From IMG/VR virus record IMGVR_UViG_3300031555_010338: DNA of 64,000 bases. The stretch is one strand, 5' to 3'. Position numbers and translations under genes: made by a program. The stretch is from a virus (taxonomy: Duplodnaviria; Caudoviricetes). This document shows, in pieces, positions 43,303 to 62,673 of this stretch; within the stretch, counting starts at the first letter, position 1, and each line of letters starts with the position of its first letter. The notes under the pieces were generated by a model, which was given only the letters and a program-made list of their open reading frames with translations, did not search any database and was not told the DNA's origin.

Positions 43303-43305
43303 TAT

Positions 43306-43382: not shown

Positions 43383-43421
43383 ATATAAACCCAGAGCGCC
43401 GTAGCGCATCTGAGTATGATC

Positions 43422-43514: not shown

Positions 43515-43519
43515 ATATA

Positions 43520-43637: not shown

Positions 43638-43642
43638 ATATT

Positions 43643-43729
43643 TGGTAGGGGAGGTGGGAGTCGAACCCACTCAGCCCGAAAGCAACGGTTTTACAGACCG
43701 CCCCAGCTCTCCGACTCTGGCGCTCCCCT
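43643..43729 (-). tRNA. tRNA-Tyr(GUA)
   Basis: gcggt-CU-GUA-AA-accgt, variable arm, CCA. Confidence 0.88.
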
Positions 43730-43891
43730 ATATCAAGTGCGGCTTCATGACATTTCAGAGGCGCAAAGCCGCAACGCTTTCTCTCCTACTGCCAGCTATT
43801 TCTCCCATAGCCAGGGCGCACTATCCTTGCGAATAGCTAAATACGCCGAACATCCTATTGGAGCGCTTTCACCTTGCGGGACTTCTATTGC

Positions 43892-44737: not shown

Positions 44738-44775
44738 CAGAATGTAACTAATAGAAATCAGTCCTTACATGAATT

Positions 44776-44867
44776 TGGTGCCGGCAGTAGGACTCGAACC
44801 CACAACCTGCCGCTTATCTGGCGCAACGGGGTATAATTCCGCTGCTCTACCATTGAGCTATGCCGGC
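44776..44867 (-). tRNA. tRNA-Ile(UAU) with long variable arm
   Basis: Loop AU-UAU-AC; extra arm with loop CA-GAU-AA; A73, CCA. Confidence 0.75.
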
Positions 44868-44874
44868 ATACAGT

Positions 44875-44949
44875 TGGTGCGGGTGGAGGGAATTGAACCC
44901 ACGACCTTGTGATTAAGAGTCACCTGCTCTACCGCTGAGCTACACCCGC
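44875..44949 (-). tRNA. tRNA-Lys(CUU)
   Basis: Loop CU-CUU-AA, CCA. Confidence 0.92.
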
Positions 44950-44968
44950 AAACATGGATGAAAGAAGA

Positions 44969-45074
44969 CAAGACACATAAGAAAGGGAGGTGAATGAAAG
45001 AAAGGAGCTGCTTATGGAGAAAGCACATTGTAAAAAACATAGTTTTGATTTTGTTATTTTGCTGTGTGTGTCTT
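44969..45074 (-). ncRNA. ACAGCAA stem motif, copy B
   Basis: aagacac-ac-ACAGCAA...gtgtctt-g. Confidence 0.6.
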
Positions 45075-45081
45075 TGTTGTT

Positions 45082-45156
45082 TGGCAGGAGCTGAAGGACT
45101 CGAACCCTCACGAACAGTTTTGGAGACTGTCATGCTACCGATTACATCAAGCTCCT
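45082..45156 (-). tRNA. tRNA-Trp(CCA)
   Basis: acagt-CU-CCA-AA-actgt. Confidence 0.92.
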
Positions 45157-45157
45157 A

Positions 45158-45235
45158 TGGGGTGGATGACGGAACTCGAATCCGCGACCTTTGGAGCCAC
45201 AATCCAACGCTCTAAGCCATCTGAGCTACATCCAC
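45158..45235 (-). tRNA. tRNA-His(GUG)
   Basis: ttgga-UU-GUG-GC-tccaa, C73; no encoded G-1. Confidence 0.9.
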
Positions 45236-45236
45236 A

Positions 45237-45313
45237 TGGCGACGCATACGGGACTTGAACCCGTGACCTCCGGCGTGACAGGCCGGCGTTCTACTCTTCT
45301 GAACTAATGCGCC
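45237..45313 (-). tRNA. tRNA-Asp(GUC)
   Basis: ccggc-CU-GUC-AC-gccgg. Confidence 0.92.
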
Positions 45314-45317
45314 ATAT

Positions 45318-45394
45318 TGGTGATGCGTATGGGGCTTGAACCCATAAATTCCAGCGTGAAAGGCTGGTGACTCTACCAATTCGTCCAACGCACC
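45318..45394 (-). tRNA. tRNA-Glu(UUC)
   Basis: ccagc-CU-UUC-AC-gctgg. Confidence 0.92.
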
Positions 45395-45398
45395 ATAT

Positions 45399-45485
45399 TG
45401 GTACTGCTAATGGGACTTGAACCCATACGAGATTTCTCCCACCAGCCCCTCAAGCTGGCGTGTCTGCCTATTCCACCATAGCAGC
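45399..45485 (-). tRNA. tRNA-Leu(GAG)
   Basis: ccagc-UU-GAG-GG-gctgg, variable arm. Confidence 0.9.
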
Positions 45486-45490
45486 ATATT

Positions 45491-45745
45491 TTATTCATTC
45501 CAATCAATTAGGGGATATAGATCGTAGGGTGAATTACCAGTTACCAACTTCTCATATCCTCCATCCACAATGCGCCAAAGCGTATGCTTTTTCTTTTCTG
45601 GATTTTGACTGATCTGATATTGCTTACCAGACTTTGTTTTACACAACACACCAGTACCGCATTCAGAAGCTGGAAGTTTCTTGACAACCTTTGATGTCTT
45701 TTCTTTTACAACATTTGCTGCCTTTCTCGGCATATATTCACCCAC
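45491..45745 (-). CDS. Small basic hypothetical protein within tRNA array
   Basis: 84-aa ORF filling a gap between tRNAs. Confidence 0.6.
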   Translation of the reverse strand: MGEYMPRKAANVVKEKTSKVVKKLPASECGTGVLCKTKSGKQYQISQNPEKKKHTLWRIVDGGYEKLVTGNSPYDLYPLIDWNE

Positions 45746-45861
45746 TTATATATAATGGCAAGGCGCTTCCAGTTGGAAGCCTTATTACGGCAAGCGGGTC
45801 ATGAATCCGCAATTTCTGCTATAACAACTTGTGCGCACAAGCCCCTTCGCAGATCCACCTC

Positions 45862-45938
45862 TGGTACTCCCAACGGGACTCGAACCCGTATTACCGGCTT
45901 GAGAGGCCAGCCTCCTATTCCAGTTAGAGGATGGGAGC
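45862..45938 (-). tRNA. tRNA-Glu(CUC)
   Basis: ctggc-CU-CUC-AA-gccgg. Confidence 0.9.
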
Positions 45939-45949
45939 ATATAAACAAA

Positions 45950-46040
45950 TGGCTGGGGTAGCAGGACTCGAACCTGCGGACGAGGGTAAACCTCTTGTCG
46001 GAGTCAAAGTCCGATGCCTTACCAACTTGGCGATACCCCA
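45950..46040 (-). tRNA. tRNA-Gln(UUG) with non-canonical long variable arm
   Basis: tcgga-CU-UUG-AC-tccga, U1-A72, G73; extra gagg-tttac-cctc hairpin. Confidence 0.85.
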
Positions 46041-46047
46041 ATATAAA

Positions 46048-46124
46048 TGGTACGCCAGAGAGGACTCGAACCCCCAACCGTAGGATTAGAAATCCCATGC
46101 TCTGTCCAGTTGAGCTACTGGCGC
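46048..46124 (-). tRNA. tRNA-Arg(UCU)
   Basis: tggga-UU-UCU-AA-tccta. Confidence 0.92.
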
Positions 46125-46127
46125 ATA

Positions 46128-46201
46128 TGGAGATACCGATAGGATTTGAACCTATGATCCTGGGGTTGCAACCCAGAGCCTTCCCACTTGGCTACGGTAT
46201 C
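46128..46201 (-). tRNA. tRNA-Cys(GCA)
   Basis: ctggg-UU-GCA-AC-cccag, U73. Confidence 0.92.
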
Positions 46202-46205
46202 ATAT

Positions 46206-46282
46206 TGGTACGCCTGGGAAGACTCGAACTCCCGACACATCGGTTCGTAGCCGATTGCTCTATTCCACTGAGCTACAGGCGC
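46206..46282 (-). tRNA. tRNA-Arg(ACG)
   Basis: atcgg-CU-ACG-AA-ccgat. Confidence 0.92.
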
Positions 46283-46399
46283 ATAAAAGAAGGAGCCTAA
46301 ACAGCGCCAACAATGCCTTACACATCGGCTGTCGCCATCCAATAGGAAGTCTCAGGGTTACTGGTTTGCTCCTTGGCCTACTAAAAACCCTTGTTCGGT

Positions 46400-46487
46400 T
46401 GGTGCTGGCGGTGGGACTTGAACCCACACGGTATTGCTACCAACGGATTTTGAGTCCGCCGCGTCTGCCGATTCCGACCACGCCAGC
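46400..46487 (-). tRNA. tRNA-Leu(CAA)
   Basis: gcgga-CU-CAA-AA-tccgt, variable arm. Confidence 0.9.
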
Positions 46488-46494
46488 ATAAAAA

Positions 46495-46562
46495 CAGAGC
46501 GCCTTGTTTTGGTTGTATCAGTTAAAAGTTGATTCCAGAAAGAAAGTTGCTGTAAGCGCTCT
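46495..46562 (-). ncRNA. ACAGCAA stem motif, copy C
   Basis: agagcgc-tt-ACAGCAA...gcgctct-g. Confidence 0.6.
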
Positions 46563-46566
46563 TGAA

Positions 46567-46653
46567 TGGTACAGGAGACAGGACTTGAACCTGCACGACC
46601 TTGCGGCCAATAGACTCTGAATCTACCGCGTCTGCCAATTCCGCCACACCTGC
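46567..46653 (-). tRNA. tRNA-Leu(CAG)
   Basis: gtaga-UU-CAG-AG-tctat, variable arm. Confidence 0.9.
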
Positions 46654-46659
46654 ATATTG

Positions 46660-46735
46660 TGGAGTAGATGACGAGACTTGAACTCGCAACAGCCAGCTTG
46701 GAAGGCTGGAACTCTACCAGTTGAGCTACATCTAC
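46660..46735 (-). tRNA. tRNA-Gly(UCC)
   Basis: ccagc-CU-UCC-AA-gctgg, U73. Confidence 0.92.
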
Positions 46736-46738
46736 AAA

Positions 46739-46814
46739 TGGTACACGATGACGGGATCGAACCGCCGACATCATCCTTGTAAGGGACGCGCTCTCCCTGC
46801 TGAGCTAATCGTGC
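46739..46814 (-). tRNA. tRNA-Val(UAC)
   Basis: cgtcc-CU-UAC-AA-ggatg. Confidence 0.92.
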
Positions 46815-46977
46815 GTATTGGCCTACTCACACCGCAGGCCGTGGTGTCGGCTCGTACTTCGCCCACCGATTTGCGTCGGTTTTACTCCCAAAACCTTGTA
46901 AAAGTCATCACTGCCAGATGTGAAGGTTTCCATTTCCCATTCAGTTTACAGTCTCCGCTCTGTTTGTGGGACGGGCA

Positions 46978-47052
46978 TGGTTGCGGGGGTGGGACTCGAA
47001 CCCACGATTCCCAGCTTATGAGGCTGGTGAGATGCCGCTTCTCTACCCCGCA
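46978..47052 (-). tRNA. tRNA-Met(CAU), initiator-like acceptor stem
   Basis: ccagc-CU-CAU-AA-gctgg; acceptor tgcgggg/ccccgca; lacks the three G-C anticodon-stem pairs of fMet. Confidence 0.85.
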
Positions 47053-47175
47053 ATATATACCGTGGATAGACCACGGGCATACGGCGTTGCGCCTAATGTG
47101 TTTGATGACAGTTCTAAAATCAGCACCAGTGCAGGCACTGGCCTCTTCTAAACTCCCTGTCATGTTTTGTTCTGC

Positions 47176-47251
47176 TGGCTGGCATGGTGGGACTCGAACC
47201 CACGACATACGGATTAACAGTCCGCCGTTCTACCAACTGGACTACACGCCA
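47176..47251 (-). tRNA. tRNA-Asn(GUU)
   Basis: gcgga-CU-GUU-AA-tccgt. Confidence 0.92.
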
Positions 47252-47259
47252 ATATCTAA

Positions 47260-47371
47260 CGAGACGCATCAATTCCATTTTGTGAAAACACCTCGGCGTT
47301 TACCGCCGAAACTTGATAAATTCAAACTTACCTTTTTTCTTCATCATATAGAAAGTTGCTGTTCGCGTCTC
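47260..47371 (-). ncRNA. ACAGCAA stem motif, copy D
   Basis: gagacgc-ga-ACAGCAA...gcgtctc-g. Confidence 0.6.
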
Positions 47372-47381
47372 TATGTATGTT

Positions 47382-47438
47382 CAAGGCACATCATCTTCTT
47401 TTACCGCAAAAAGTATGTAGTGTTGCTGTTCGTGCCTT
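47382..47438 (-). ncRNA. ACAGCAA stem motif, copy E
   Basis: aaggcac-ga-ACAGCAA...gtgcctt-g. Confidence 0.6.
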
Positions 47439-47463
47439 TGTTATTTTGCGCGGAATTTCCGCG

Positions 47464-47539
47464 TGGTCTGAGTGGTGGGGATCAAACCCACGGCCTCGTG
47501 ATCCCAAATCACGCGCTCTATCATCTGAGCTACACCCAG
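47464..47539 (-). tRNA. tRNA-Pro(UGG)
   Basis: cgtga-UU-UGG-GA-tcacg. Confidence 0.9.
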
Positions 47540-47544
47540 ATATT

Positions 47545-47965
47545 TGGTGGAGTAGGCGGGAATCGAACCCGCGTCCGAAATTCCTACATGTACAAAACAT
47601 TCTTACGCAATAGTCGATAGTTTCTGCATTTACCGAATGGAAGGCTGCTTAGATGATCGACACAACAAATGCCCAGGGCGCACCGGTTTAGTGGCCTCCA
47701 CCACCTTGTTTCTTTTCACAGTGACAAGGAAAACTGCAATGCTGGCTGAATCATTATCCTCAGACGCTCACCCAACCAGAGGTGCGTCGTTTTGGTATCC
47801 GAACTGCTGTTAAGCAGCAACCCTCTCTGCCACACAAGCGGCCAGTGCAGGATGGATCATAACGAAAACTTCAGTGTTGTCATTTCATTTTTGTTTGAGC
47901 CGTAAGGAGGACTCATACCTGCGTGTTTTGCACTCTCAAAACCCCGTCGAACCCATTACTACCCC
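47545..47965 (-). ncRNA. ssrA: tmRNA
   Basis: 5' GGGGUAGUAAUGGGUUCGAC; 3' UUCGGACGCGGGUUCGAUUCCCGCCUACUCCACCA; G3-U70 pair; tag ORF ending VAA*. Confidence 0.92.
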
Positions 47966-47979
47966 ATATTAAATTGTAG

Positions 47980-48055
47980 TGGTCGAGACGAATGGGATTG
48001 AACCATTGACCTTTCGATTATCAATCGAATGCTCTACCAACTGAGCTACGCCTCG
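47980..48055 (-). tRNA. tRNA-Ile(GAU)
   Basis: ttcga-UU-GAU-AA-tcgaa. Confidence 0.92.
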
Positions 48056-48172
48056 ATATTAGGCCATGCGTCCGAAAAACCTCGTCTGCAGCCGATAGGT
48101 TTTTAGCTGAGATAGCAGTAAAAGTAATGAGCTGAACCGCACAAACGCTAACATAACCAACATGGCACATTC

Positions 48173-48248
48173 TGGTGGAACTGATGGGGGTCGAACCCAC
48201 GACCTCCTGCTTGCAAGGCAGGCGCTCTCCCAACTGAGCTACAGCCCC
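48173..48248 (-). tRNA. tRNA-Ala(UGC)
   Basis: cctgc-CU-UGC-AA-gcagg, G3-U70. Confidence 0.93.
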
Positions 48249-48254
48249 AGGTAT

Positions 48255-48276
48255 TCCCGCCCCTTTCGGGGCAGGA
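48255..48276 (-). promoter_or_regulatory. GC-rich hairpin (GAAA loop) downstream of VR2, probable DGR target-recognition hairpin
   Basis: tcctgcccc-gaaa-ggggcggga, 17 nt after the stop codon. Confidence 0.6.
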
Positions 48277-48293
48277 GTTTTTAGGTTATAAGG

Positions 48294-49097
48294 TTAGCAA
48301 CAGAAGCCGAAGGACACGCCACAACTGGTGCCGGCGCCGTTAAGGTTGGCGTCGCCGCCGCTGGAAACAGAACAGAAACTCGCGGAGATGCTGGAAAGAG
48401 GAGAACGCAGAAAATTCCATCGTCGATCTCCAAAATCGTCTTCCTTGTAGTATGGGACATCTTCCTGTTTATAGAACTCATACCACTTACCCTCTCCAGG
48501 GACAGAGTAAAAACATCTACCGTATAATTCCTTCTCGCTTTTCAACCACAGTTTACAGACACTCTTGACGATTTCCTTGCTACAGTTACCAGCGCTGGTC
48601 AACTTAATAACAGGCTTAATAATCGCCTGAATATCATCAGAACACAAATTGATAATCTCATCGTTTAACCTACGATTCATATCACAGGCATCCCAACCAC
48701 CACGATTCGTGCAGTCTTGATTCATCCGCATGTCTTCTTTGTAAATATTCACCATATCCCAAGAAATGGGAGCCTTACCGGAGCCATCAGCAAGATCGTC
48801 GTGGTCAAAACCAATAATCTGCCATACAGCAACGAAGCCGTTCTTCATGTAGTCCTTCTTCTGAGCGCCAAGAGCAAATGTCTCTCGCGCCTTACCAGAA
48901 CGACCAACATCATCAATTTTATCCCACGAAAGATGGTTGAGATCCTTCATTGGAAGCGCCATAGGCGCAACAAACCCAATGTCCAGCGGCTCATGCTTCA
49001 TCTCCGAACCAAAGTCGAATGTCACGACACCATTGTTACACGAGATATTCAAAGAGCCAAACCTTCCGATATCTTTCTCACTGATACTGACCTGCAT
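48294..49097 (-). CDS. DGR target 2: stand-alone DUF6273-like (C-type lectin-fold) protein
   Basis: Paralog of target 1 C-terminal domain (QIIGF.HD.LADG.G; N.GGW..C.M; LRSP...GVSFGFC). Confidence 0.85.
   Translation of the reverse strand: MQVSISEKDIGRFGSLNISCNNGVVTFDFGSEMKHEPLDIGFVAPMALPMKDLNHLSWDKIDDVGRSGKARETFALGAQKKDYMKNGFVAVWQIIGFDHDDLADGSGKAPISWDMVNIYKEDMRMNQDCTNRGGWDACDMNRRLNDEIINLCSDDIQAIIKPVIKLTSAGNCSKEIVKSVCKLWLKSEKELYGRCFYSVPGEGKWYEFYKQEDVPYYKEDDFGDRRWNFLRSPLSSISASFCSVSSGGDANLNGAGTSCGVSFGFCC
48301..48408 (-). repeat. DGR variable repeat VR2 (remote)
   Basis: Ungapped 108-nt match to TR 8692-8799 with 22 mismatches, all at TR adenines. Confidence 0.95.
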
Positions 49098-49130
49098 TCA
49101 TTAACACTCCCTTGTGTTGTTTAGTTACTT

Positions 49131-49766
49131 CCTTGAAAAATTCAATATCTCAATCACACTCATCATTCGGCCTTCGCCGTACCTCCATTACCTTCTTCCA
49201 ATCTTCTGCCACCAGGGAGACAAGTCTGAGCTTCGGGGAGCGACCCCTAACTTCTTGCCCCAGTCCCCGCCCTAAAAGAGCCGAACCACGAGTCCTGTGC
49301 GGGATTGTTTACCCGCAAATTTCACCGTTCGTTCAGAAATTGTTACTTTTACAATAACGCACCCAATTTGCATTATAGAAAGATCATCTTCTTCTCCGTC
49401 CTACGGCTACTTTAACCGGCGACTTTCGTTATAGCCGAATTTCTTCGACATCAAGACGGAAACGCATTGCTGGCTTTACCTCCGTCATTATGGCTGCCAC
49501 ACCATAACCCCATAGGCTTATTCTTCCACCGGAAGCGTCTATTGCTGCGCCCGAAAGTTCCGTGCATTTTGTAGCGATAACTCTTAGCACCACACATTTT
49601 TGTTGGCGGTTTCCGCCTCCCCACAATACATCGCTGCATCGCAGCCGCCCAGCAATAAAAGGTATCCCTCGTAAGCCAAACGGAAATTACTGCGTGTCTC
49701 TGAGTGCTGACGCACTTTGTTCACAGAGTTAATAATAAGCATGATTCAGATATTGAATTTTCAAGG
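49131..49766 (-). ncRNA. Large structured ncRNA, ROOL-like
   Basis: ~630 nt without a credible ORF, closed by a 25-bp terminal inverted repeat, many internal hairpins, inside a phage tRNA operon; family assignment from recalled similarity, not a search. Confidence 0.7.
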
Positions 49767-49771
49767 TTCTT

Positions 49772-49847
49772 TGGAGCTGGTGACAGGAATCGAACCCGCA
49801 ACCCACTGATTACAAATCAGTTGCGCTACCTGTTGCGCTACACCAGC
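49772..49847 (-). tRNA. tRNA-Thr(UGU)
   Basis: actga-UU-UGU-AA-tcagt. Confidence 0.92.
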
Positions 49848-49880
49848 AGATTGTTTAGTTAGTTCCTCTTGACAAGTATT

Positions 49881-49909
49881 ACTATACCAGACAGAAACCG
49901 ATTTGTCAA
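49881..49909 (-). promoter_or_regulatory. SigmaA promoter for the RNA island
   Basis: TTGACA-17 nt-TATAGT with extended -10 TG and AT-rich upstream element. Confidence 0.8.
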
Positions 49910-49940
49910 TAGGAATTAGCAAAATAATTTCAAAAATTTT

Positions 49941-50016
49941 TGGTGGCTGGGATCGGACTCGAACCGATGTCTCCAGCTTATGAGGCTGGCAAGAAAACCA
50001 ACTTCTCCACCCAGCC
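49941..50016 (-). tRNA. tRNA-Met(CAU) (elongator or Ile2)
   Basis: ccagc-CU-CAU-AA-gctgg, G1-C72. Confidence 0.88.
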
Positions 50017-52257: not shown

Positions 52258-55035
52258 TTAATTCTTATGACTTTGGTAATATCTGGCGTTTCGCTTAGCT
52301 CTTTTCTCCTTATCCCGCACATCTTGACAAGCGTCGCAGCGCTTCTTGTTCTTCACAATTCCATCGACCTCGAAATCCTTTCCGCAATCAATACAGCGAA
52401 TGGTCTTTTTGACAATAGGATGATAGACGGCGCAATTATTACAAAGCTTCTGCTGCGCAGTCATCGGAACAAAGCGCTCTCCGCATTTCTTACACTGGAT
52501 AGATCCATCTGGCAGATTATTCCGAAGGTTGGTCAAAACCATATCGCCAAAACACATCCAGAAAACATTTTTCCGTTTACTCTGTTTGGTGTGGAAAAGA
52601 TACTTTACGAGAACATCACATACATCCTTCATGTCGTACCCAAGAGCGGCGAATCGCTCCAAAATCATATCTCGCACATATGCAAGGTTTGTCATATCGT
52701 CATAGAAGCTGATTGCGTAACGATACTGTTTTTCGATTTCGTTATATAAGTCAACAACGTCCTGTAACATACTCACCTTCAAGGAAGGATTATTGAGCAT
52801 GTACTGATATCGAAAAACACCAATGTTCCTTGCAGAAAAGGACATACGCTTGTTTGGAACGATTGCTTCCAGACGGTTTACTGCACTGTAATTCAACCGC
52901 TGTACTCTGCCGCCATCCTTTTTCTTCGCATATACAAAGAAATGTGGGGCTTTCATGCTGGTAATTCTCGCCAGTCTTGCGTTTACATCGTCCGGACGAG
53001 TTGGCTTAAACAAAGTCTTCGCATAGTCAATACAGAAGTTGTTCTCCATACACAAGATCTTAATAGCGTCGATATCTACATCGTCGCTGTTCCAGATTTT
53101 CGTGATGTCGTTGCTGATAACACCGATATTGCCTCCAGTCCAGGCCGCACGAAGACCTTTGAATATCTCTTCATTTGTTATGGTGACAGCGCCGGCCTTT
53201 GCCATCTCATAATACAGAGGGACAATGCCTTCCATGTTTCGCTCCGCGATTTCTACCAAAAGACGATCCGCGCATACAAGGCTCTTATCTCCATCGCAGT
53301 CAAACTGCAAAATCTTTGAAATAAGATCATGACAACTCGTATAAATAGCGTTTGGAGTAAACCACTTTCTTGTCATTGGTGTAACGACATTACGCCGTAC
53401 TGCATGTTCTCTATACAAATGTGGCGAACGCAAACAATCCAGCTTCTCAATATTGCGATAAAGATAGCAAGATACCTCGCCATCAGCCAGCAAACCCTTT
53501 GGATCTCGATTACCAAGGAAAAGCCACTCGCAAAATGCGTACAAATCAGGAATTAAGAACATATACTTCGCAGACAAATCCAGCTTTGCTGCCTTTGCCT
53601 CTTGCACCAGGTTCTTTTTTATCTGTCGAAGCATTTCCTTTGTGTACGGATCAGAAAGAAGCTCTGGATAAATCTGCAAACACTCCTGAAAGGCATTTTT
53701 GTTTTTGAACTGAGAAGAAGCACCGAAAACATCAAGCATGGTTTCACGATCAGACGCGATCCTAACAATCTTGTCAACGGACTTCTCAGCAAGTGACTGC
53801 AGCTCTTCTTCCGTAATATCTGTCAGTGTCTGAAGCATCTGATAATTCAGCTTTGCGTCAGGAAGAAAGTCTTCTTCCTCATTGCACTTGCCAGCCGTGC
53901 ATCCATTTTCAAGATACATCGCAATATACTCATTCCAACTTTCGTAGTATTTGTACATCTTGAACTGGCTTTTAGTAAAAATTACCTCAATGCCCTCAGC
54001 AATGATATCATGCTCTTTCCCGTAAATATCCTTTACAACGCCATGGCTTACACTCGGATCGTTCTGATCTGCCTCTCTTATAAATCGGTCAAACGGGAAT
54101 ACCGCAAGAAGACCTTTTACCCAAGGCAAACGAACCATTGTGTTTTTGGGACAGCAGGTAGGTAGCACCATGCCGCACCCATCTGTATGTGTGATTGGGA
54201 TATCCATTTGCTTTCGCTCTGTCTGATATGTTCGGTGGTCAATAAAATCCACTGTGCCAGCAACCAATGTTTCCATATCATCGACTACGATAGACTTTTG
54301 AATATCAAAACCATCCCAAGGATCTGTTGCACTATTGCAAAGAGCAAGGTAAGCAAGATATTTATTGATGTTAATACCTCCGCGCTCATTGATGCTATCA
54401 ACTGTCAGGCCACACATCAGAGTTTTTTGATACTTCTCCCAAACCTTCTCTTTGATGAACACTGTTTTCTTTGTTCGGATCTGGCCGGCAGAAGCAGTAA
54501 AGCAAATATAACGCTCTCCGTTGTAGGTATATCCATTCAGAATCATATCTTCAATGACATCGAAGTAATATGTACGAATAACCATGAAATCGTCATACAG
54601 CTTGCCGGTTTGCATACCAAGGGTTCTTGTCAACATCGACTCAAACACAGAGATGATGTTCTTATCGATTACATACTCGCTTCTCAACTCTCTCGTCTCC
54701 CTATGTTTCTGCAACAGAGAAACAAGCTCATCCTTATACAGCTTCATCGCTGTATTTTTGCCCTTCAGCTCTTTGTTGATCTGGCGAATACGATCCTTGT
54801 CGCCTATTTCTACCTGCTCATCACGGCGAATCTTATACAGCGCACGATACTGAGACTGAGCCTTTTCGAGTGAAAGTCCGCCGTAGTGATAGCTTGATAG
54901 TATTTCCCGCTCTGCCTTCAACTTGTTCTTTTCGTTGCAGAGCTTGTTTATTTCAATCTCCAGCTTGCGCTCTTCGTCCGTATAAAACGCACTGGTATCA
55001 AAGCTGTAGATATGGATTTGCTTATCGAGACTTAT
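52258..55035 (-). CDS. YonO-like single-subunit RNA polymerase (RdRP-like fold) with C-terminal zinc fingers
   Basis: TDGCG, RLPWVKG, RSPH, QFDCDGD catalytic motif; frame stays open to ATA 55035 behind AAGGAGG. Confidence 0.88.
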   Translation of the reverse strand: MSLDKQIHIYSFDTSAFYTDEERKLEIEINKLCNEKNKLKAEREILSSYHYGGLSLEKAQSQYRALYKIRRDEQVEIGDKDRIRQINKELKGKNTAMKLYKDELVSLLQKHRETRELRSEYVIDKNIISVFESMLTRTLGMQTGKLYDDFMVIRTYYFDVIEDMILNGYTYNGERYICFTASAGQIRTKKTVFIKEKVWEKYQKTLMCGLTVDSINERGGININKYLAYLALCNSATDPWDGFDIQKSIVVDDMETLVAGTVDFIDHRTYQTERKQMDIPITHTDGCGMVLPTCCPKNTMVRLPWVKGLLAVFPFDRFIREADQNDPSVSHGVVKDIYGKEHDIIAEGIEVIFTKSQFKMYKYYESWNEYIAMYLENGCTAGKCNEEEDFLPDAKLNYQMLQTLTDITEEELQSLAEKSVDKIVRIASDRETMLDVFGASSQFKNKNAFQECLQIYPELLSDPYTKEMLRQIKKNLVQEAKAAKLDLSAKYMFLIPDLYAFCEWLFLGNRDPKGLLADGEVSCYLYRNIEKLDCLRSPHLYREHAVRRNVVTPMTRKWFTPNAIYTSCHDLISKILQFDCDGDKSLVCADRLLVEIAERNMEGIVPLYYEMAKAGAVTITNEEIFKGLRAAWTGGNIGVISNDITKIWNSDDVDIDAIKILCMENNFCIDYAKTLFKPTRPDDVNARLARITSMKAPHFFVYAKKKDGGRVQRLNYSAVNRLEAIVPNKRMSFSARNIGVFRYQYMLNNPSLKVSMLQDVVDLYNEIEKQYRYAISFYDDMTNLAYVRDMILERFAALGYDMKDVCDVLVKYLFHTKQSKRKNVFWMCFGDMVLTNLRNNLPDGSIQCKKCGERFVPMTAQQKLCNNCAVYHPIVKKTIRCIDCGKDFEVDGIVKNKKRCDACQDVRDKEKRAKRNARYYQSHKN

Positions 55036-55053: not shown

Positions 55054-55392
55054 TTATTCTTCTACCTTAATGAGATCGCCTGTCCAGAACAACCAAGTAG
55101 GCTCTTCTTTCAAACTTACGACGGTTTTCAACTTTCCGCCGCGTTCATCACGACTTACCGTAAAAATCTGTTCCGTATTATTTTCTACGAACTGCTTATA
55201 TTGTTCTGACAGCCTATCGTAATCGGCGTGTCCCTGGATAGCCTTCAAGTTCAGTCTTACTTTGTCGCCGTCTTCCAGATCCACTGGAGACACATCCATT
55301 TCTTTCAGCCGCAAATATACGTCAGCGATGCGCTTATCTACGCCCTTCTTTTTCGCAGCCTTCACGAAATTTCTCTTCTGCTTTCGATTCAT
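55054..55392 (-). CDS. Hypothetical protein
   Basis: 112 aa, translationally coupled. Confidence 0.65.
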   Translation of the reverse strand: MNRKQKRNFVKAAKKKGVDKRIADVYLRLKEMDVSPVDLEDGDKVRLNLKAIQGHADYDRLSEQYKQFVENNTEQIFTVSRDERGGKLKTVVSLKEEPTWLFWTGDLIKVEE

Positions 55393-55946
55393 CAGGCAAC
55401 TCCCTTTTGGTTCAGATAGGTTTCCAGAGAGTCCAAAATCTCTTCAACAAATGCGATCCAGTTGGGATCGATGCGAATCTCATTCTTATGGATGCGGTAA
55501 TACTGCGGAGCAGAGTCGCCCATGACATAGCCCATTGCCTGCCAGTCACAAATCATCTCCAGATATGCGCACAGCTTCTCATCAACACCGCCATAGTTAA
55601 TGAAAGTGCCGTCCTCTGCCACCCAATACTGCCAATGGTGGTCGTTTCGGGAGTAATGGCATCTCCACGCCTGCTCATACGCAGCTTCATTTACAGTCTC
55701 ACCATCAATGGGGTAGAAATGCTGACGATACGGCAGGAACTCTTCCTCGCTCATCTTACTGTCATCATGCCGGCGCACACGCCAATTCATTTCGTTAATA
55801 ATACAGTCTCTCTGCAGCAGAGGGATATCCTTCAGTGCCTCTTTCAGCTCAGCCCACGCAAGAATAATGTTCTTCTTGTGCTGCTCGATATAGGCCATAT
55901 ACTCGCTTGTCTTTTCCATCCAAGCACCCTTATTAAACTCGCTCAT
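55392..55946 (-). CDS. HD-like domain protein (DUF5662-like)
   Basis: H...HDDSK...HY.RNDHHW...EMICDW. Confidence 0.7.
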   Translation of the reverse strand: MSEFNKGAWMEKTSEYMAYIEQHKKNIILAWAELKEALKDIPLLQRDCIINEMNWRVRRHDDSKMSEEEFLPYRQHFYPIDGETVNEAAYEQAWRCHYSRNDHHWQYWVAEDGTFINYGGVDEKLCAYLEMICDWQAMGYVMGDSAPQYYRIHKNEIRIDPNWIAFVEEILDSLETYLNQKGVA

Positions 55947-55959
55947 ACCGTTCTCCTTC

Positions 55960-57123
55960 CTATGCGAACATAGATCTTAACTTTTTGATGTTTTTGGCAA
56001 GCAGCAACGCCGCAGTCTCTACATCGTCGCTCGTATTGCTTGAACCAAAAGAAATCCGTATCGTGCAATGCGCATCTTTAGCGCTCATACCGATGGCCGT
56101 TAAAACATGGCTTGGCTCCAAAGAACCTGCGGAGCAAGCAGAAGCCGCAGAAATGCAAACTCCATCCGCATCCATAAGTCGTAACAACGCTTCCGCTTCA
56201 ATTCCAGTGTTTGTTATGCTCAAAATATTCGGCAGGCACATACCATCGAAATCCGAATTGACGCGGTACATACACCCGTTATCTTCCATAGCCTTAACAA
56301 ACGTGCTTTTAAGATATGCGTATCTTCGGATATATTCAGAAAGATAATCCTGCGTATTACGCGCCGCTGCACCAAGTCCAACAATAGCAGCCACGCTCTC
56401 TGTGCCAGAACGCATTCCTCGTTCCTGACCTCCACCGATGATAATTGGTGAGATATTCTTCATAACAGAAGCCTTGACATATAGTGCGCCGATACCCTGT
56501 ACTGTACCAAACTTATGTCCGCTCATGGACAGCAGATCAACGCCAAGCGACTTCACATCTACCACCATATGTCCAACCGCCTGTACAGCATCTGTATGTA
56601 CCAAGCAATCACACTGATGGCAGATAGATGAAATAACAGACATTTTCTGTACCACACCAATCTCATTATTTGCAAGCATCACGCTTACAAGGCCGACATC
56701 ACCAACCTGCAAATACTCATGGAGAACAGACACATTTACTCTTCCAAACTGGTCAACTGGTAAAATCTTTACTGTCATACCAGCATCGGCCAGCGGCTTT
56801 TGCAAGTTTAGAATCGCATGATGTTCGATGGCGCTTATCACAACGGTTGTCTTGCCAATCCTTTTCAAATATGGAACCATACCCATAATCGCCATATTGT
56901 CTGACTCAGTTCCACCAGAAGTAAAGATGATTTCTTCCTTCTTGTCGGCGTTAATGAGCCGCATTACATCATGCCTCGCTCCTTCGATTGCTTCTTTTGC
57001 GGCTCTTCCTGCCGAATGCAGCGTACTCGGATTGCCAAAATGTTCCCCATCCAACCACGGCAGCATTGCCATGCGAACGGAAGGGAGAACTCTGGTTGTA
57101 GCTGCATGATCCAAATAAATCAT
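55960..57123 (-). CDS. iscS: Cysteine desulfurase (IscS/NifS family)
   Basis: IYLDHAATT, FTSGGTESDN, HTDAVQ, SGHK (PLP Lys), SACSAG (catalytic Cys). Confidence 0.93.
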   Translation of the reverse strand: MIYLDHAATTRVLPSVRMAMLPWLDGEHFGNPSTLHSAGRAAKEAIEGARHDVMRLINADKKEEIIFTSGGTESDNMAIMGMVPYLKRIGKTTVVISAIEHHAILNLQKPLADAGMTVKILPVDQFGRVNVSVLHEYLQVGDVGLVSVMLANNEIGVVQKMSVISSICHQCDCLVHTDAVQAVGHMVVDVKSLGVDLLSMSGHKFGTVQGIGALYVKASVMKNISPIIIGGGQERGMRSGTESVAAIVGLGAAARNTQDYLSEYIRRYAYLKSTFVKAMEDNGCMYRVNSDFDGMCLPNILSITNTGIEAEALLRLMDADGVCISAASACSAGSLEPSHVLTAIGMSAKDAHCTIRISFGSSNTSDDVETAALLLAKNIKKLRSMFA

Positions 57124-57215
57124 AAATCTCACCATCCTCGGCTGGGACGGGCGTTAGCCCGTCCGTAGCCATCGATAACAAAAATATTGGATACTAACAA
57201 CTGGTTTGTTAGTGT

Positions 57216-57956: not shown

Positions 57957-58500
57957 AAGTTACGACCCATACAAATGGGTTATTTGTCCAGCCATACTTT
58001 TCTCGCTTAGCTTCTGATAATGAACCATCCCACATTTCTGCGAATGTCACCTCTGGGAGCAATGTGCCTCTCAACCAAACACCCTCACGAGCAATATCCA
58101 GCATGGAAATATCGTGAAGCTTTTCAAATCCAACGTGAGTAACTTTCAAATAAAGACGAACCGCGTCTTTTGGCATATGAACAGATGACTTCCAGGCTGT
58201 CAAATGCCAACCAGCCGGCATTGCGTCATCCGCCTTATACACATACTCTCCATCAAGCTCTGCCCAGGTTTCTTTTACACCAATAACATCTCCGATTTCA
58301 TACGGCGGCTTAATGACCTCGCCTCCGATATTCGGTGAATCTTGGATACCCGCAAACAAACCGGCTGCGGTCATCGTGCCACCTAAAATATCCTGTTTCT
58401 TCAAGGCGAATCGCATTTGAGTTTTTCTACCTTCCAGTATTCCACTCACCGCTTCGCCATTAAGCCGTATGTACTTTACTTCCCTGTCAATCATCGGCAA
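57928..58500 (-). CDS. ASCH/PUA-like domain protein
   Basis: ILEGRKTQ.R, GD...VKETW, W.SS.HMP, NPFVWVV.F. Confidence 0.7.
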   Translation of the reverse strand: MPMIDREVKYIRLNGEAVSGILEGRKTQMRFALKKQDILGGTMTAAGLFAGIQDSPNIGGEVIKPPYEIGDVIGVKETWAELDGEYVYKADDAMPAGWHLTAWKSSVHMPKDAVRLYLKVTHVGFEKLHDISMLDIAREGVWLRGTLLPEVTFAEMWDGSLSEAKREKYGWTNNPFVWVVTFERMEGFDG

Positions 58501-59242
58501 GCACTTCGATCCAAGGACGGTATGCCGGCATCGGCATCATCTTAAAAGCATTTGCATGATGAAGATTATCAATCTTGGCCTTAACTGCCTCATCGTCGCA
58601 TTTTCCAGTTCGGATGTAGGTATCAAGCGCAGCATATGTGAAGCCAAAATTATCCTCATCGGTCTTTCCGCTCAATCCATCAGACGGAACCTTATGGATA
58701 AGATCATCTGGCAGGCCAAGAACCTCGCCAATCTGAACAACCTCACCAACCGTCAACTGAGAAATCGGAGCAAATTGGCCTACACTGTCTCCAAACAAAG
58801 TGGAGTATCCAATCCAGTCCTCAGACAAATTACAGGTGTTTGCCACCCTGCCGTTGCAGCTCTGAGATACCGCAAATAAAGTTGCCATACGGATTCGCGC
58901 CGGCAGCTTTACTCTGGTTTGATGACTGGTAATAATACCAGTATTTCGCATACCACCAAGCACTTCCATAACCGCGTCTCGGATATTGATTTCAAAATGC
59001 TTAATGTTAAGGTGTTGCACAAGCGCATAGCTGGCAGAAATATCAGATTGAACGCCCTGTGGCATCAAAACACCAATCACACGATCTTTACCAAGAGCTT
59101 CTACACACAATGCGGCAACAACTGACGAATCTTTACCACCAGAAATACCGACGATTGCGTTACACGTTGCGCCATTCTTCTCAAAATAGTCTCTGATCCA
59201 TGCAACACACTCGTTTTTCACTTTCTCCGCATCAAAGCCCAT
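58487..59242 (-). CDS. nadE: NH3-dependent NAD+ synthetase
   Basis: GISGGKDS, ARIRM, N.SE..IGYST.FGD, PSDGL...TDED..G. Confidence 0.93.
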   Translation of the reverse strand: MGFDAEKVKNECVAWIRDYFEKNGATCNAIVGISGGKDSSVVAALCVEALGKDRVIGVLMPQGVQSDISASYALVQHLNIKHFEINIRDAVMEVLGGMRNTGIITSHQTRVKLPARIRMATLFAVSQSCNGRVANTCNLSEDWIGYSTLFGDSVGQFAPISQLTVGEVVQIGEVLGLPDDLIHKVPSDGLSGKTDEDNFGFTYAALDTYIRTGKCDDEAVKAKIDNLHHANAFKMMPMPAYRPWIEVLADD

Positions 59243-60735
59243 CAGAACCCTCCATTCTCAGCATGGAGACGGTTTCTGATTTCGCTCAGCGTGTATTCCT
59301 TAGTAATCGCACCATCACGGAACACAGTCTCCAGCATGTTTTCTCCGCTCACTGTTGCGGGTGTCAGCCCGTCTTCATATACGATCTGTCCGTCTGTATC
59401 GTGGTACACTCTACAAACCCCGCGCTGGCTCTTCTTGAATCTTCCAGTATCGGTCTTAGGATTTTTGAAAATCTCAAATCCCTTGCCGTTGACCTCTCCA
59501 TATGTCGCCTTAACCGCAATGCCAAACGTATCTCTGGTAAAGGGGTTAAGGATCGTTTCGTCCTTATCGTTGACTGTCTCGACGCACTGCATGGAAAAGC
59601 TGCCAACACCAAGAGAGACATTGTTGCAGGCAAATCCAGCCTCAATCAGTCTGCGGTAGATTTCAGCACAGCGATTTACGGTAATAGAATCACCGTACAA
59701 AGCCTTCACATGGGGGTCGAGAACCTTGTATCCCTTACTGTTTACGGTTCCTCCGAAAATGTCCCACAGATGAAATACAGTCTCAGTCACGATTTCAACA
59801 GGATCGCCGCTATCGCCGCGAACCAGAAGACATCCGTTATGGTTCATGATTTCATCCTTGAGCTGAGGAAGAATCTCATCAACCAAGTGCCAGTAGTCGT
59901 AGCTATCGGACACCATAGAGAAGTTGTGATTGGGATAAATCTCAGTCAGAAGTCGGCGCACGAAGGAGATCTCATCACCGTCGATGGCGTAGTTACTGCA
60001 CATCACGCTATGCTCCGTAGAGATTGCGCCGTATGCAACCGGCTCCTTAGTACAGTCGCAGTTATACATCTTTTCAAGGTACGGAATTGCGGGGACAGTT
60101 GCCGTATTGAGGAAAGACAGACAAAAACCAGCGCTGCTCTTAACGGCTGACTGCAAGCTCTCCTGACCACGGAAGGAGAAATCGCCCAGCGCACGACTGC
60201 GAGGAATATTGTCATCCACGGAAATGTCGTATGCACGATTGACGATCTCACGATACCAATAGCCAACATTGGCGGAAATCATCGGATGCCACAGCTCAGC
60301 GGACATCAAAGACTCAATGGTGTTCACCAGCCACGCAAAATCGGGGTGTGTATTGCTGATCTCGATCATAGGAACCTTGATAGGAACACGGGTTCCCTCA
60401 GGAATCGCCTTAATCTCCAAGGGCAGATACCCAAGCTTGTGCAGATCGACAATCTTACCAAGGTCATAAGTACCAACGCCAAGCGTACTGTCGAGAACTC
60501 TCTGATACTCAGCAGCGACCTCTTCACGACTACGGTTGAAGAAATACTTGTTGAAGTAGTCCACAAGATATGTCTTCAAAAACGCCTGCAAGCTGAACAT
60601 GACAAGCTTATCCTGACCGCCAATTCTGCTCATACGAGGTGTCAGATAAGACACCAGCTTTGTCAGGCCACTCGGATACTGCTCGTGGTGAGTAGTCTTG
60701 TAAAAATCCAGCAAAAGCAAAGGATTAGTTTCCAT
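59242..60735 (-). CDS. NAMPT-family phosphoribosyltransferase (Namat-like)
   Basis: DFYK..H, DFSFRG, TEHS, VSDSYD, RGDSG, YGDSI, GVGS, K.PKTD, KKS..G. Confidence 0.9.
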   Translation of the reverse strand: METNPLLLLDFYKTTHHEQYPSGLTKLVSYLTPRMSRIGGQDKLVMFSLQAFLKTYLVDYFNKYFFNRSREEVAAEYQRVLDSTLGVGTYDLGKIVDLHKLGYLPLEIKAIPEGTRVPIKVPMIEISNTHPDFAWLVNTIESLMSAELWHPMISANVGYWYREIVNRAYDISVDDNIPRSRALGDFSFRGQESLQSAVKSSAGFCLSFLNTATVPAIPYLEKMYNCDCTKEPVAYGAISTEHSVMCSNYAIDGDEISFVRRLLTEIYPNHNFSMVSDSYDYWHLVDEILPQLKDEIMNHNGCLLVRGDSGDPVEIVTETVFHLWDIFGGTVNSKGYKVLDPHVKALYGDSITVNRCAEIYRRLIEAGFACNNVSLGVGSFSMQCVETVNDKDETILNPFTRDTFGIAVKATYGEVNGKGFEIFKNPKTDTGRFKKSQRGVCRVYHDTDGQIVYEDGLTPATVSGENMLETVFRDGAITKEYTLSEIRNRLHAENGGF

Positions 60736-61528
60736 ATTTTAATTCCTCCACATCAAATACTGTAATCAGAGGGTGGTTCTTGCGGAAAATAGAGTTGGTG
60801 GTATAAATACCGGCCAAAAGTCCACTGTTGATAAGCTCCCCCTCAAGGATCGTGTTCTCGCAATGCGTTACATACAGAAACACATTCTCAACGCCCAGGC
60901 TCTTCAAAGCCCGTGCGGTATGTAAGAAAGTTCCGCCTTTACTACAAATATCATCGCAGATCAGCGCCGACTTCTTACCATTTAGGCCGTTGCCCATGAT
61001 TTCCAGCCCCTCGATTGCTCCGGTACTCCAATCACGCTTCTTTACGCCAAATGCGTATGGAATTCGGAACATGTCAGAGTAGCGCTTCATCGCACCCTCA
61101 TCTGGATACACCATAGCAATTTCAGACTGCATAATGTCATTCAGCGCCGCACTGACGAACTTATTTGGAGTAAAAACCTGAACTCTGTCGATCAGAGCAG
61201 CGGAAACGCTGGAATGAGGATCAAGTACATAGACGTTCTGGAAATGAAGGCTGTTGATAATGTCAGCAAAATACTTCAGCGTAAACACCTCATTATCCGC
61301 CTTTACACGATCCATCCTCGCATTCGGGATGTATGGCATATACAGGTTGATTGGGAAGCAACCATACTGGCGAAGATGGGACACAATATAGATCAGCGCA
61401 GGCAGCTCATGTTCGCCATCATACATCCATGTGACATTTTTAGCCTCGCCGCTAACACCGACCTTCAGCAGCGGAGTTCCATCCGGAAAATGTCTTAACT
61501 GAATTTCTTGTCCATTGACCTTAATCAT
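60725..61528 (-). CDS. Ribose-phosphate pyrophosphokinase-like protein (Adps-like)
   Basis: FPDG, PYIPNARMDR, DPHS, PDEGA, DDICSKGGT. Confidence 0.9.
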   Translation of the reverse strand: MIKVNGQEIQLRHFPDGTPLLKVGVSGEAKNVTWMYDGEHELPALIYIVSHLRQYGCFPINLYMPYIPNARMDRVKADNEVFTLKYFADIINSLHFQNVYVLDPHSSVSAALIDRVQVFTPNKFVSAALNDIMQSEIAMVYPDEGAMKRYSDMFRIPYAFGVKKRDWSTGAIEGLEIMGNGLNGKKSALICDDICSKGGTFLHTARALKSLGVENVFLYVTHCENTILEGELINSGLLAGIYTTNSIFRKNHPLITVFDVEELKYGN

Positions 61529-62066
61529 GACTTTCCTCCATATTCAGAATTTCAATCTGACAAGCCTTCATTGCATTCAGTGCATTGTTATGACTCTCAG
61601 GAGTTACACCAGCGCAGCAGGCCGCATCAACCATCACAGGGGTTTCAGGGCAAAAAGCCTTGATTACCATCGCATTGGAGATCACGCAAATATCCGTACA
61701 GACACCAACCAGCTCTACACTGTCGATAGTACCCTTCATAAACTGCTCCGTCACAAAAAGGCCAAGCTGTACAGAACCAAACGTGTACTTCTCAACGGTA
61801 AAGCATCTGTCTTTGTATGCCTCCAGCTCCGGTACAAGACGATGACCGTCAGTGCCGCGAATGCAATGCTTGACAGGGAGGTTCTTTCCCTCCTGAGTAT
61901 TCAGATAGTCTTCATTGTGAGTGTCGAAGGTAAAGATAACCATTTCGGTATTGGCAACCTTACTCACAATGCCATTTACCACGGAAGCGGCTTCCTTTGA
62001 GCCAAGCACACCATCCACGAAATCTCGCTGCATATCCACAACGACCAAAAGTTTTTTACTATCCAT
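61521..62066 (-). CDS. pncA: Nicotinamidase (isochorismatase family)
   Basis: VVDMQRDF, DTH, HC..GT.G, EK.TFG, G.CTDICV (Asp-Lys-Cys triad). Confidence 0.8.
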   Translation of the reverse strand: MDSKKLLVVVDMQRDFVDGVLGSKEAASVVNGIVSKVANTEMVIFTFDTHNEDYLNTQEGKNLPVKHCIRGTDGHRLVPELEAYKDRCFTVEKYTFGSVQLGLFVTEQFMKGTIDSVELVGVCTDICVISNAMVIKAFCPETPVMVDAACCAGVTPESHNNALNAMKACQIEILNMEESHD

Positions 62067-62079
62067 GTTCAAATTCCTC

Positions 62080-62673
62080 CTAAACATGAGTCCATATTGT
62101 TCCCTTAATGATTTTCGAGATCAGATTTGCCGAAACGCCGAATTGTTCAGCGAGTTCTTGTCTATTGCACTTCTGCCCCTTCCCTTTCGGGATATAAACG
62201 CTGCGGATATAAAGGACATCCGCCTCGCTTAGCTTTGACATACCATTACAGCTACCAGAGTAAACCCCCATCTGAGAGTAATATCCAAGCTGGTAAGGCA
62301 CATCGTAATCAATCAATTCAAGATCTACGGCGTGAAAGTAGTTCTCTCTTCTCGTACACCACTCCAGATTTGCAACATCGTTATGTTGCTTACATCCGTC
62401 CATATGGTTCACGATCTCATAGTTCGCTACATTCGGAAGATAAGTCTCCGCGACACAACGATGCACATGTACATTGATCCGTTTTCCATTGACAGAGATA
62501 CAGGCTTGCAAATATCCGCCATCTCCATAGCCGAACGAATAGATACGCTTAGTCTTAGCGTTTCGCAGTCTACCCCAGGTAGACACCTCAAATCTCCATG
62601 AATAGTCGATACCTTGATAAACTGCGCCAGTCCATTCTTCTGGAATCTGGTTTCTAATCGTTTCCTCGCTCAC
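62080..62673 (-). CDS. HNH homing endonuclease (NUMOD4-type)
   Basis: EVS..GRLRN, VHRCVAETY, VNHMDGCK.HN...NLEW. Confidence 0.85.
   Translation of the reverse strand: MSEETIRNQIPEEWTGAVYQGIDYSWRFEVSTWGRLRNAKTKRIYSFGYGDGGYLQACISVNGKRINVHVHRCVAETYLPNVANYEIVNHMDGCKQHNDVANLEWCTRRENYFHAVDLELIDYDVPYQLGYYSQMGVYSGSCNGMSKLSEADVLYIRSVYIPKGKGQKCNRQELAEQFGVSANLISKIIKGTIWTHV

Follow-up and report, generated by a model that had tools for sequence, protein, structure and literature searches.

The viral record IMGVR_UViG_3300031555_010338 (143,788 bp, rated 100% complete) is the genome of a tailed phage of ~144 kb that encodes a terminase, a portal, tail proteins, an endolysin and 27 tRNA genes; a stretch of 64,000 nucleotides of it, called the window here, was analysed. 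Bases 1-429 of the window are genuine sequence but are reported to fall outside the contig. Four minus-strand open reading frames (ORFs) are packed into positions 58487-62087, with overlaps of 8, 11 and 1 nt between neighbours, and are interpreted below as a candidate nicotinate-type version of NAD+ reconstitution pathway 1 (NARP1), by which phages rebuild nicotinamide adenine dinucleotide (NAD+) with the enzymes Adps and Namat. A sequence-only reading of this DNA had placed overlapping pncA, prs-like, NAMPT-like and nadE genes at 58487-62066, and this arrangement was confirmed, including the pncA ATG at 62066, which is likely the true start because an AGGAGG is located 9 nt ahead of it. The genes and sites of the cassette, all on the minus strand, are as follows:

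61521..62066, minus: pncA-like nicotinamidase, 181 aa from the ATG at 62066 (ORF open from 62087); PF00857
60725..61528, minus: Adps-type Prs-like enzyme, predicted ADP-ribose pyrophosphokinase, 267 aa; phrog_619
59242..60735, minus: Namat-like transferase, predicted nicotinate ADP-ribose transferase, 497 aa; phrog_448, PF04095 and NAMPT_N
58487..59242, minus: nadE, single-domain NH3-type NAD synthetase, 251 aa; PF02540
60100..60102, minus: codon GCA of transferase Ala212 (site of Namat Asp215 and human NAMPT Asp219)
60106-60108, minus: codon of Asn210 (Namat Gly213), a co-varying pocket site
60019-60021, minus: codon of Ser239 (Namat Ala242), a co-varying pocket site
59530..59604, minus: rebuilt part of the selectivity clamp (residues 378-402, GSF...PFTRD), in which 14 residues absent from Namat are inserted

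PncA matched PF00857 (9.7e-26) and phrog_19305, and its best solved relatives are the nicotinamidases 1im5, 3o90 and 3pl1. The catalytic triad (D18, K100, C134) and the metal-binding residues D55, H57 and H74 line up with the motifs of Pyrococcus PncA and do not vary among 68 homologues from cassettes; the protein falls below the cut-off of the NCBIfam nicotinamidase equivalog (26 vs 174 bits). At the other end of the cassette, NadE matched PF02540 (9.8e-50) and TIGR00552 (167 bits, cut-off 63.65). Among solved structures, it is most closely related to NH3-dependent NAD synthetases; all 69 cassette homologues keep the SGGxDS loop, and the protein has no glutaminase domain.

The Prs-like protein (phrog_619, 7.7e-67) scored under the cut-off with all Pfam and NCBIfam models of the synthetases of 5-phosphoribosyl pyrophosphate (PRPP) and matched solved PRPP synthetases at 1e-18 or weaker. 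It aligned over its full length with SPbetaL1 Adps (36% identity, 6e-49), an enzyme that converts ADP-ribose (ADPR) to ADPR pyrophosphate (ADPR-PP) and gives no product from ribose-5-phosphate (bioRxiv 10.1101/2024.02.11.579819). Residues F18, R87, H121, D161, K185 (catalytic), D212 and D213, which contact ADPR or catalyse the transfer in ICP1 Adps (PMC13586617), are retained in the window protein, and the same residues are present in at least 148 of the 151 Prs-like homologues that are linked to the Ala/Ser-type transferases described below. The Adps site F92 is a Lys in the window protein and is variable among classical Adps proteins too (Glu in SPbetaL1). As judged by homology, the Prs-like gene is a member of the Adps family and not of the PRPP synthetases, as the sequence-only reading had supposed.

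Base pocket and clamp of the transferase

The transferase (phrog_448, 1.8e-159) scored 428 bits with Namat 9w5x and 182 bits with human NAMPT, and the two Namat structures 9w5x and 9w5w are its best solved relatives. Its N-terminal domain is NAMPT_N (PF18127), and the close structures are all Namat, NadV or NAMPT. An AlphaFold model with a predicted local distance difference test (pLDDT) score of 96.2 found its best fold match in Namat, with a template modelling (TM) score of 0.90-0.93, a root-mean-square deviation of 1.6 A and 44% identity. Assignment as a PncB-type nicotinate phosphoribosyltransferase was considered and rejected, the protein having the NAMPT fold and not the PncB architecture.

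In Namat, the nicotinamide pocket consists of F189, R192, D215, A242 and R306, plus D13 and Y15 of the partner chain; D215 hydrogen-bonds nicotinamide, and the D215A substitution lowers NAD+ synthesis with nicotinamide about 8-fold (PMC12774641). D215 corresponds to D219 of human NAMPT. HMMER aligned NTATV of the window transferase to GTDTI of Namat 9w5x, placing Ala212 (codon GCA) at this site, and the Asp-to-Ala change that the sequence-only reading had picked out by eye was thus borne out. To compare pockets, 374 distinct homologues were mapped onto the Namat positions, and they fall into two sharply separated classes, Asp/Glu and Ala/Ser:

Namat site 215: Asp/Glu class, Asp in 175 and Glu in 17; Ala/Ser class, Ala in 162 and Ser in 20; window, Ala212
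Namat site 242: Asp/Glu class, Ala in 183/185; Ala/Ser class, Ser in 180/181; window, Ser239
Namat site 213: Asp/Glu class, Gly in 191/192; Ala/Ser class, mostly Asn (144) or Lys (24); window, Asn210

Ala or Ser replaces Asp215 in all 182 distinct members of the clade. The catalytic core is kept, with F189, R192, H245, R306, D308, G360, D361, GS390-391 and TRD398-400 all present and the catalytic His unchanged. The earlier claim that loss of the Asp favours nicotinate stood in part only: for human NAMPT, D219S is listed as a substrate-preference switch and D219A as inactive (table 2 of PMC4919578; PMC7096376), and in the present enzymes the loss always comes with A242S and G213N/K. This natural triple change, which adds two hydrogen-bond donors, is more telling for nicotinate use than the Ala alone.

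The clamp that selects the donor is partly kept. In Namat, a double mutation of R40 and F392 reduced ADPR-PP-dependent synthesis 16.6-fold and left the activity with PRPP untouched (PMC12774641); the window transferase retains both residues as Arg37 and Phe380. Tyr396 is replaced by Cys, and an aromatic residue precedes TRD. Measured against the Namat clamp motif, Phe at position 3 fits, but position 7 holds Cys and TRD is preceded by an insertion of 14 residues, which AlphaFold modelled as a confident beta-hairpin (residues 384-398). The model supports the fold and the ordered hairpin and is neutral as to ligand preference. Among the library homologues, one protein of 865 aa (P0083) is a Ser-type transferase (~1-520) fused to a NadE domain (612-833). 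Another, P0104, in which a 37-residue PncA tail is joined to part of a transferase, was regarded as an artefact of gene calling or assembly.

Linkage, descent and hosts of the cassette

A total of 418 loci were collected from IMG/VR, metagenomes, bacterial and archaeal assemblies and phage records; their flanks were searched with cassette-derived profiles, and linkage counts were restricted to loci with full flanks. Of the 81 most closely related loci, 80 have the four genes as well, which is far above chance, and all 81 have Ala at the base site. The co-occurrence check that the sequence-only reading had called for gave a sharp separation: PncA, NadE and Adps were found near the Ala/Ser-type transferase in 187/196 loci overall, as opposed to 0/113 Asp/Glu loci with PncA or NadE. 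By source, the counts were:

Ala/Ser, IMG/VR and phage records: PncA, NadE and Adps in 140/142
Ala/Ser, metagenomes: PncA, NadE and Adps in 3/3
Ala/Ser, genome assemblies: PncA, NadE and Adps in 44/51, five of the rest being without NadE only
Asp/Glu, all sources: PncA or NadE in 0/113, Adps in 111/113

At least five different gene orders were observed for the cassette and the surrounding genes are not conserved, which indicates that the four genes move as a unit. For orientation, 50,697 phage records contained a Namat/Nampt homologue in 2041 cases, NadE in 50 and PncA in 11. One subgroup of the Asp/Glu class (L220, L224, L229 and L233-L249) has Glu at the base site (GSETIPA), KSRDS in the clamp and Adps downstream of Namat; neither PncA nor NadE was found in any of these Glu-type loci.

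The absence from the window of an adenylyltransferase for nicotinamide mononucleotide (NMN) or nicotinic acid mononucleotide (NaMN), as reported by the sequence-only reading, extends to the whole genome: PF01467, the family of NMNAT, NadD, NadR and NadM, gave no match in the window or in the 143,788-bp record, while the same search matched 14/14 control genomes. PF01467 was likewise absent from 28/30 other cassette-bearing phage records. One 245-kb cassette phage has a cytidylyltransferase-like PF01467 gene (L421, G021:C1:130977-131474, in the genome of L059) ~6.5 kb from its cassette, which may be an addition of the NadR/NMNAT type, and a second cassette-bearing genome (G027) gave two PF01467 matches.

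A profile for the macro-like family that accompanies classical NARP1 detected a gene within or adjoining 19 of 112 dereplicated Ala/Ser cassettes and beside 16 of 144 classical Asp/Glu NARP1 loci; the Pfam Macro score of a representative is borderline (21.6 bits vs 22). The window cassette has no such gene, and a search of its genome gave one weak sub-threshold match, far away.

A tree of 266 dereplicated sequences was rooted with NadV of Vibrio phage KVP40, a PRPP-preferring Nampt with Asp and Ala in the pocket and no aromatic clamp. All Ala/Ser enzymes fall together in one clade (support 0.98), whose sister group comprises all 188 Asp/Glu Namat sequences; the clade has diverged to about 40% identity. 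Its basal lineages are P0021, P0023, P0037, P0115 and phAss-1, the cassette having been read for phAss-1 only. The earliest branches, including phAss-1, retain the Namat clamp motif (aromatic-x-aromatic-x-aromatic before TRD), which the PRPP-preferring Nampt is without. In the crown group, to which the window belongs, Tyr396 is changed to Cys, a segment of 9-14 residues is inserted, and an aromatic residue stands just before TRD. Because the basal branches keep the clamp, the switch of the base pocket took place in an enzyme already equipped with the ADPR-PP clamp and partnered by Adps. The score with 9w5x, the position beside Namat in the tree and the clamp of the basal relatives together uphold the Namat-type assignment made from sequence alone. 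Matches to P0021 and P0037 in IMG/VR reached 47% identity at most, so that neither had a close relative there, and a metagenome scan with the alignment of the basal Ala/Ser enzymes returned mostly Asp-type loci.

Close homologues (60-71% identity) are present in assemblies of Lachnospiraceae, Ruminococcus and Oscillospiraceae, including the isolates Ruminococcus albus KH2T6 and AR67, and Pseudoruminococcus massiliensis. In R. albus KH2T6 (L415 5589-8509), pncA, the adps-like gene and the transferase gene sit among rpsB (ribosomal protein S2), tsf (EF-Ts) and other housekeeping genes, with no adjacent nadE. A gene of the NrtR type (NUDIX plus NrtR winged helix) adjoins the cassette in 58 of 80 assembly loci vs 1 of 150 IMG/VR phage loci. 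Gut Clostridia thus also have a chromosomal version of the cassette, seen at L415 and 57 other assembly loci, and the phages probably share it with these hosts.

Predicted pathway and competing explanations

In the mechanism that we propose, a host NADase defence would cleave NAD+ to ADPR and nicotinamide, and the cassette would rebuild it in four steps: (i) PncA would deamidate nicotinamide to nicotinate; (ii) the Adps-type enzyme would pyrophosphorylate ADPR with ATP to give ADPR-PP; (iii) the Namat-like transferase, with its rebuilt pocket (Asn210, Ala212, Ser239), would join nicotinate to ADPR-PP and yield deamido-NAD (NaAD) directly; and (iv) NadE would amidate NaAD to NAD+. We favour this full mechanism, with some reserve, as the description of the cassette: a deamidated, nicotinate-type NARP1 in a phage of gut Clostridia. 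Its parts differ in strength. That nicotinate is the base is probable. That ADPR-PP is the donor is fairly probable and is the weakest link; in favour are the Adps-family partner, the conserved R40 and F392, the basal clamp, the lack of an adenylyltransferase in the phage genomes and the macro-like genes. NaAD as the substrate of NadE and an anti-defence role of the cassette are presumed. Comparative genomics thus supports the deamidating four-gene pathway outlined by the sequence-only reading, all of whose testable sequence-level predictions held, with its donor and NadE substrate standing as predictions.

Several points weigh against this proposal. The Ala alone is no proof of nicotinate use, since human D219A is reported inactive, and the linkage amounts to a single switch that was long maintained and not to independent events, since all Ala/Ser enzymes belong to one clade. 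The second-best solved relative of the window NadE is 3fiu, the NaMN-amidating enzyme of Francisella; homology is therefore compatible with either NaAD or NaMN as the NadE substrate. The missing adenylyltransferase is compatible with a route through NaMN as well, because hosts have NadD. In the crown group, the rebuilt clamp (Tyr396 to Cys, and the inserted hairpin) means that adenine recognition and the preference for ADPR-PP may have changed. Finally, Namat uses PRPP in vitro (PMC12774641; bioRxiv 10.1101/2024.02.11.579819).

The last points bear on the most credible alternative, a host-dependent route resembling Preiss-Handler salvage, in which PRPP (made by the Prs-like enzyme or by the host) and nicotinate would give NaMN, host NadD would convert it to NaAD, and the phage NadE would finish the synthesis. 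NadD is near-universal in bacteria. The chemistry is common to Namat and Nampt, the NCBIfam family NF006629, with which the transferase scores 463 bits (cut-off 405), is named nicotinate phosphoribosyltransferase, and the 245-kb phage described above carries a PF01467 gene close to its cassette; the use of PRPP by Namat and the loss of Tyr396 with the gain of the insertion also fit such a route. It is nevertheless unlikely: the Prs-like protein is short and of the Adps family, it is related to an Adps that makes no PRPP, and it keeps F18, the residue that stacks on adenine; the ADPR-PP clamp is retained in basal members of the clade, macro-type genes are embedded within related cassettes, and 28 of the 30 genomes lack an adenylyltransferase. 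Moreover, phages that do use PRPP (NARP2) carry Nampt and Nmnat without a Prs-like gene (bioRxiv 10.1101/2024.02.11.579819).

Very improbable, in our judgement, is an ordinary NARP1, in which nicotinamide and ADPR-PP would give NAD+ and PncA and NadE would merely boost the deamidated salvage of the host in parallel. An Adps-Namat pair alone suffices in known phages (bioRxiv 10.1101/2024.02.11.579819), and the five chromosomal loci without adjacent NadE would be accommodated. However, the nicotinamide-binding Asp is missing from every cassette member, the corresponding Ala substitutions are costly in Namat and listed as inactivating in the human enzyme, and the three pocket sites co-vary with pncA and nadE with no exception in the sample. 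In addition, the transferase would have to vie for nicotinamide with a PncA from its own operon, and a transferase-NadE fusion exists. The least credible account is that the end product is not NAD+, another pyridine carboxylate being loaded or NaAD being the end product, e.g., to act as a decoy for NADase effectors, to inhibit them or to supply a signal precursor: the pocket rebuilt at three sites, the new hairpin in the clamp and the chromosomal loci without adjacent NadE could be read in this way, but NadE is linked in nearly all full-flank loci and fused in P0083, nicotinate is the only known product of PncA, and related chromosomal operons adjoin NrtR-type NAD regulators.

Taken as a nicotinate-type NARP1, the cassette would represent a further NAD+ reconstitution pathway. 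The balance tips only slightly towards this broader claim, in which the key reaction, nicotinate + ADPR-PP to NaAD + pyrophosphate, would be new and would bypass both the nicotinate phosphoribosyltransferase (NAPRTase) and the NaMN adenylyltransferase, and the genes would occur both as a chromosomal operon of gut Clostridia that recycles ADPR and nicotinamide, often with an NrtR-type regulator as neighbour, and as a mobile counter-defence cassette of their large phages.

Known systems and neighbouring genes

The closest known system is NARP1 of SPbetaL1, Bas63 and ICP1 (bioRxiv 10.1101/2024.02.11.579819; PMC12774641; PMC13586617). The two have in common an Adps-family gene directly upstream of a Namat-family gene, a transferase 44% identical to the solved Namat (TM 0.9) with the core, R40, F392 and TRD kept, and the conserved Adps residues. 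The window system differs from NARP1 in four respects: (i) the pocket has Ala for Asp215, Ser for Ala242 and Asn for Gly213; (ii) the clamp has a 14-residue hairpin and no Tyr396; (iii) a nicotinamidase and an NAD synthetase travel with the cassette, which is the case for none of the 113 classical NARP1 loci; and (iv) the predicted transferase product is NaAD and not NAD+. NARP1-AP adds to NARP1 the macro-domain phosphatase Adpp, which converts ADPR-1''-phosphate to ADPR (bioRxiv 10.64898/2026.01.28.702374); counted with one profile, a macro-like gene stands in or beside 22 of 112 dereplicated Ala/Ser cassettes and 19 of 144 Asp/Glu NARP1 loci, unlike the window cassette, which is without one.

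NARP2 of Vibrio phage KVP40 (Nampt and Nmnat) also rebuilds NAD+ with a NAMPT-fold transferase. However, KVP40 NadV is 30% identical, has Asp and Ala in the pocket where the window enzyme has Ala212 at the base site, and is without the aromatic clamp; moreover, NARP2 needs Nmnat, for which the window genome holds no PF01467 match. NARP3, which consists of PnuC and NadR, is a different system. With Preiss-Handler salvage (PncA, PncB, NadD, NadE) the cassette shares PncA as the first enzyme and NadE as the last, the base being deamidated at the start and re-amidated at the end, but it has no PncB-type NAPRTase and no NadD; the Adps/Namat-type pair in the middle would merge two steps and use ADPR instead of PRPP and ATP. 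The human NAMPT mutant D219S, for which a substrate-preference switch is listed in PMC4919578 (table 2), is substituted at the same pocket residue. That mutant is an engineered single substitution in a PRPP enzyme, whereas the present enzymes are a natural clade with Ala (162) or Ser (20) and two more pocket changes.

The same gene set occurs in phage phAss-1 (OQ749652), where the genes are annotated as nicotinamidase, ribose-phosphate pyrophosphokinase and nicotinamide phosphoribosyltransferase and are followed by a NadE-like ORF; the paper lists these annotations and proposes no pathway (PMC10607447). phAss-1 differs in that its transferase is a basal Ala-type enzyme with the classical Namat clamp and in that the phage recodes TAG. 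In full-text literature combining NARP1, Namat or ADPR-PP with nicotinamidase, NadE, nicotinic acid or NaAD, no description of such a cassette was found, and pncA and nadE go unmentioned in the preprint that introduced NARP1 and in its two follow-ups.

If the proposal is true, three enzymatic steps along the deamidated branch would rebuild NAD+ from ADPR once nicotinamide is deamidated, by way of a reaction that is missing from current maps of NAD metabolism, and the phage counter-defences that restore NAD+ (NARP1, NARP1-AP, NARP2 and NARP3) would gain one more pathway. The ability of phages of nicotinate-salvaging hosts to cope with NADase defences would be explained, and a probable housekeeping operon for ADPR recycling would come to light in abundant gut Lachnospiraceae and Ruminococcus. 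The three-residue change (Gly to Asn/Lys, Asp to Ala/Ser, Ala to Ser) would constitute a natural recipe for base selectivity in the NAMPT fold. For annotation, the rule would follow that a 'nicotinamide/nicotinate phosphoribosyltransferase' and a 'ribose-phosphate pyrophosphokinase' in such a cassette are probably neither.

Regarding expression, a promoter scan gave fewer promoter-like sites than shuffled sequences and none on the minus strand, and terminator-like sites were at chance level. Three short exact metatranscriptome contigs at 60314-60740 came from one run and do not amount to evidence of transcription; two 'transcriptomic' runs are probably DNA. At least 17 studies of animal gut and faeces have metagenomes that contain the exact stretch.

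Genes around the cassette, namely those for an HNH endonuclease, phrog_874, a class-V aminotransferase, DUF5662 and an RdRP-like protein, were considered as further members and rejected, as they recur only in the five closest loci. The HNH endonuclease gene (62080-62673, minus strand) ends 14 nt before the pncA start. Many of the library transferase homologues have large insertions or HNH/LAGLIDADG domains (e.g., P0044 and P0058), suggesting that homing elements have often invaded these genes. The aminotransferase gene, also similar to cysteine desulfurases (PF00266, 1.2e-74), stands beside the DUF5662 gene at 55392-57135 (minus strand), a pair that is unusual for a phage. A protein of 887 aa encoded at 52258-54921 (minus strand) matched the Pfam RdRP family PF05183 (1.2e-13) and phrog_8308 (7e-257), with weak HNH similarity at its C-terminus, and may be a homologue of the single-subunit RNA polymerases of the YonO/crAss type. 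The 27 tRNA genes form an array at 43095-50016 (minus strand) that covers most amino acids; no suppressor tRNA was seen among them, unlike the TAG-recoding phAss-1. Lastly, an ORF of 2616 aa at 20125-27975 (minus strand) probably encodes the tape-measure protein, as in phAss-like siphoviruses.

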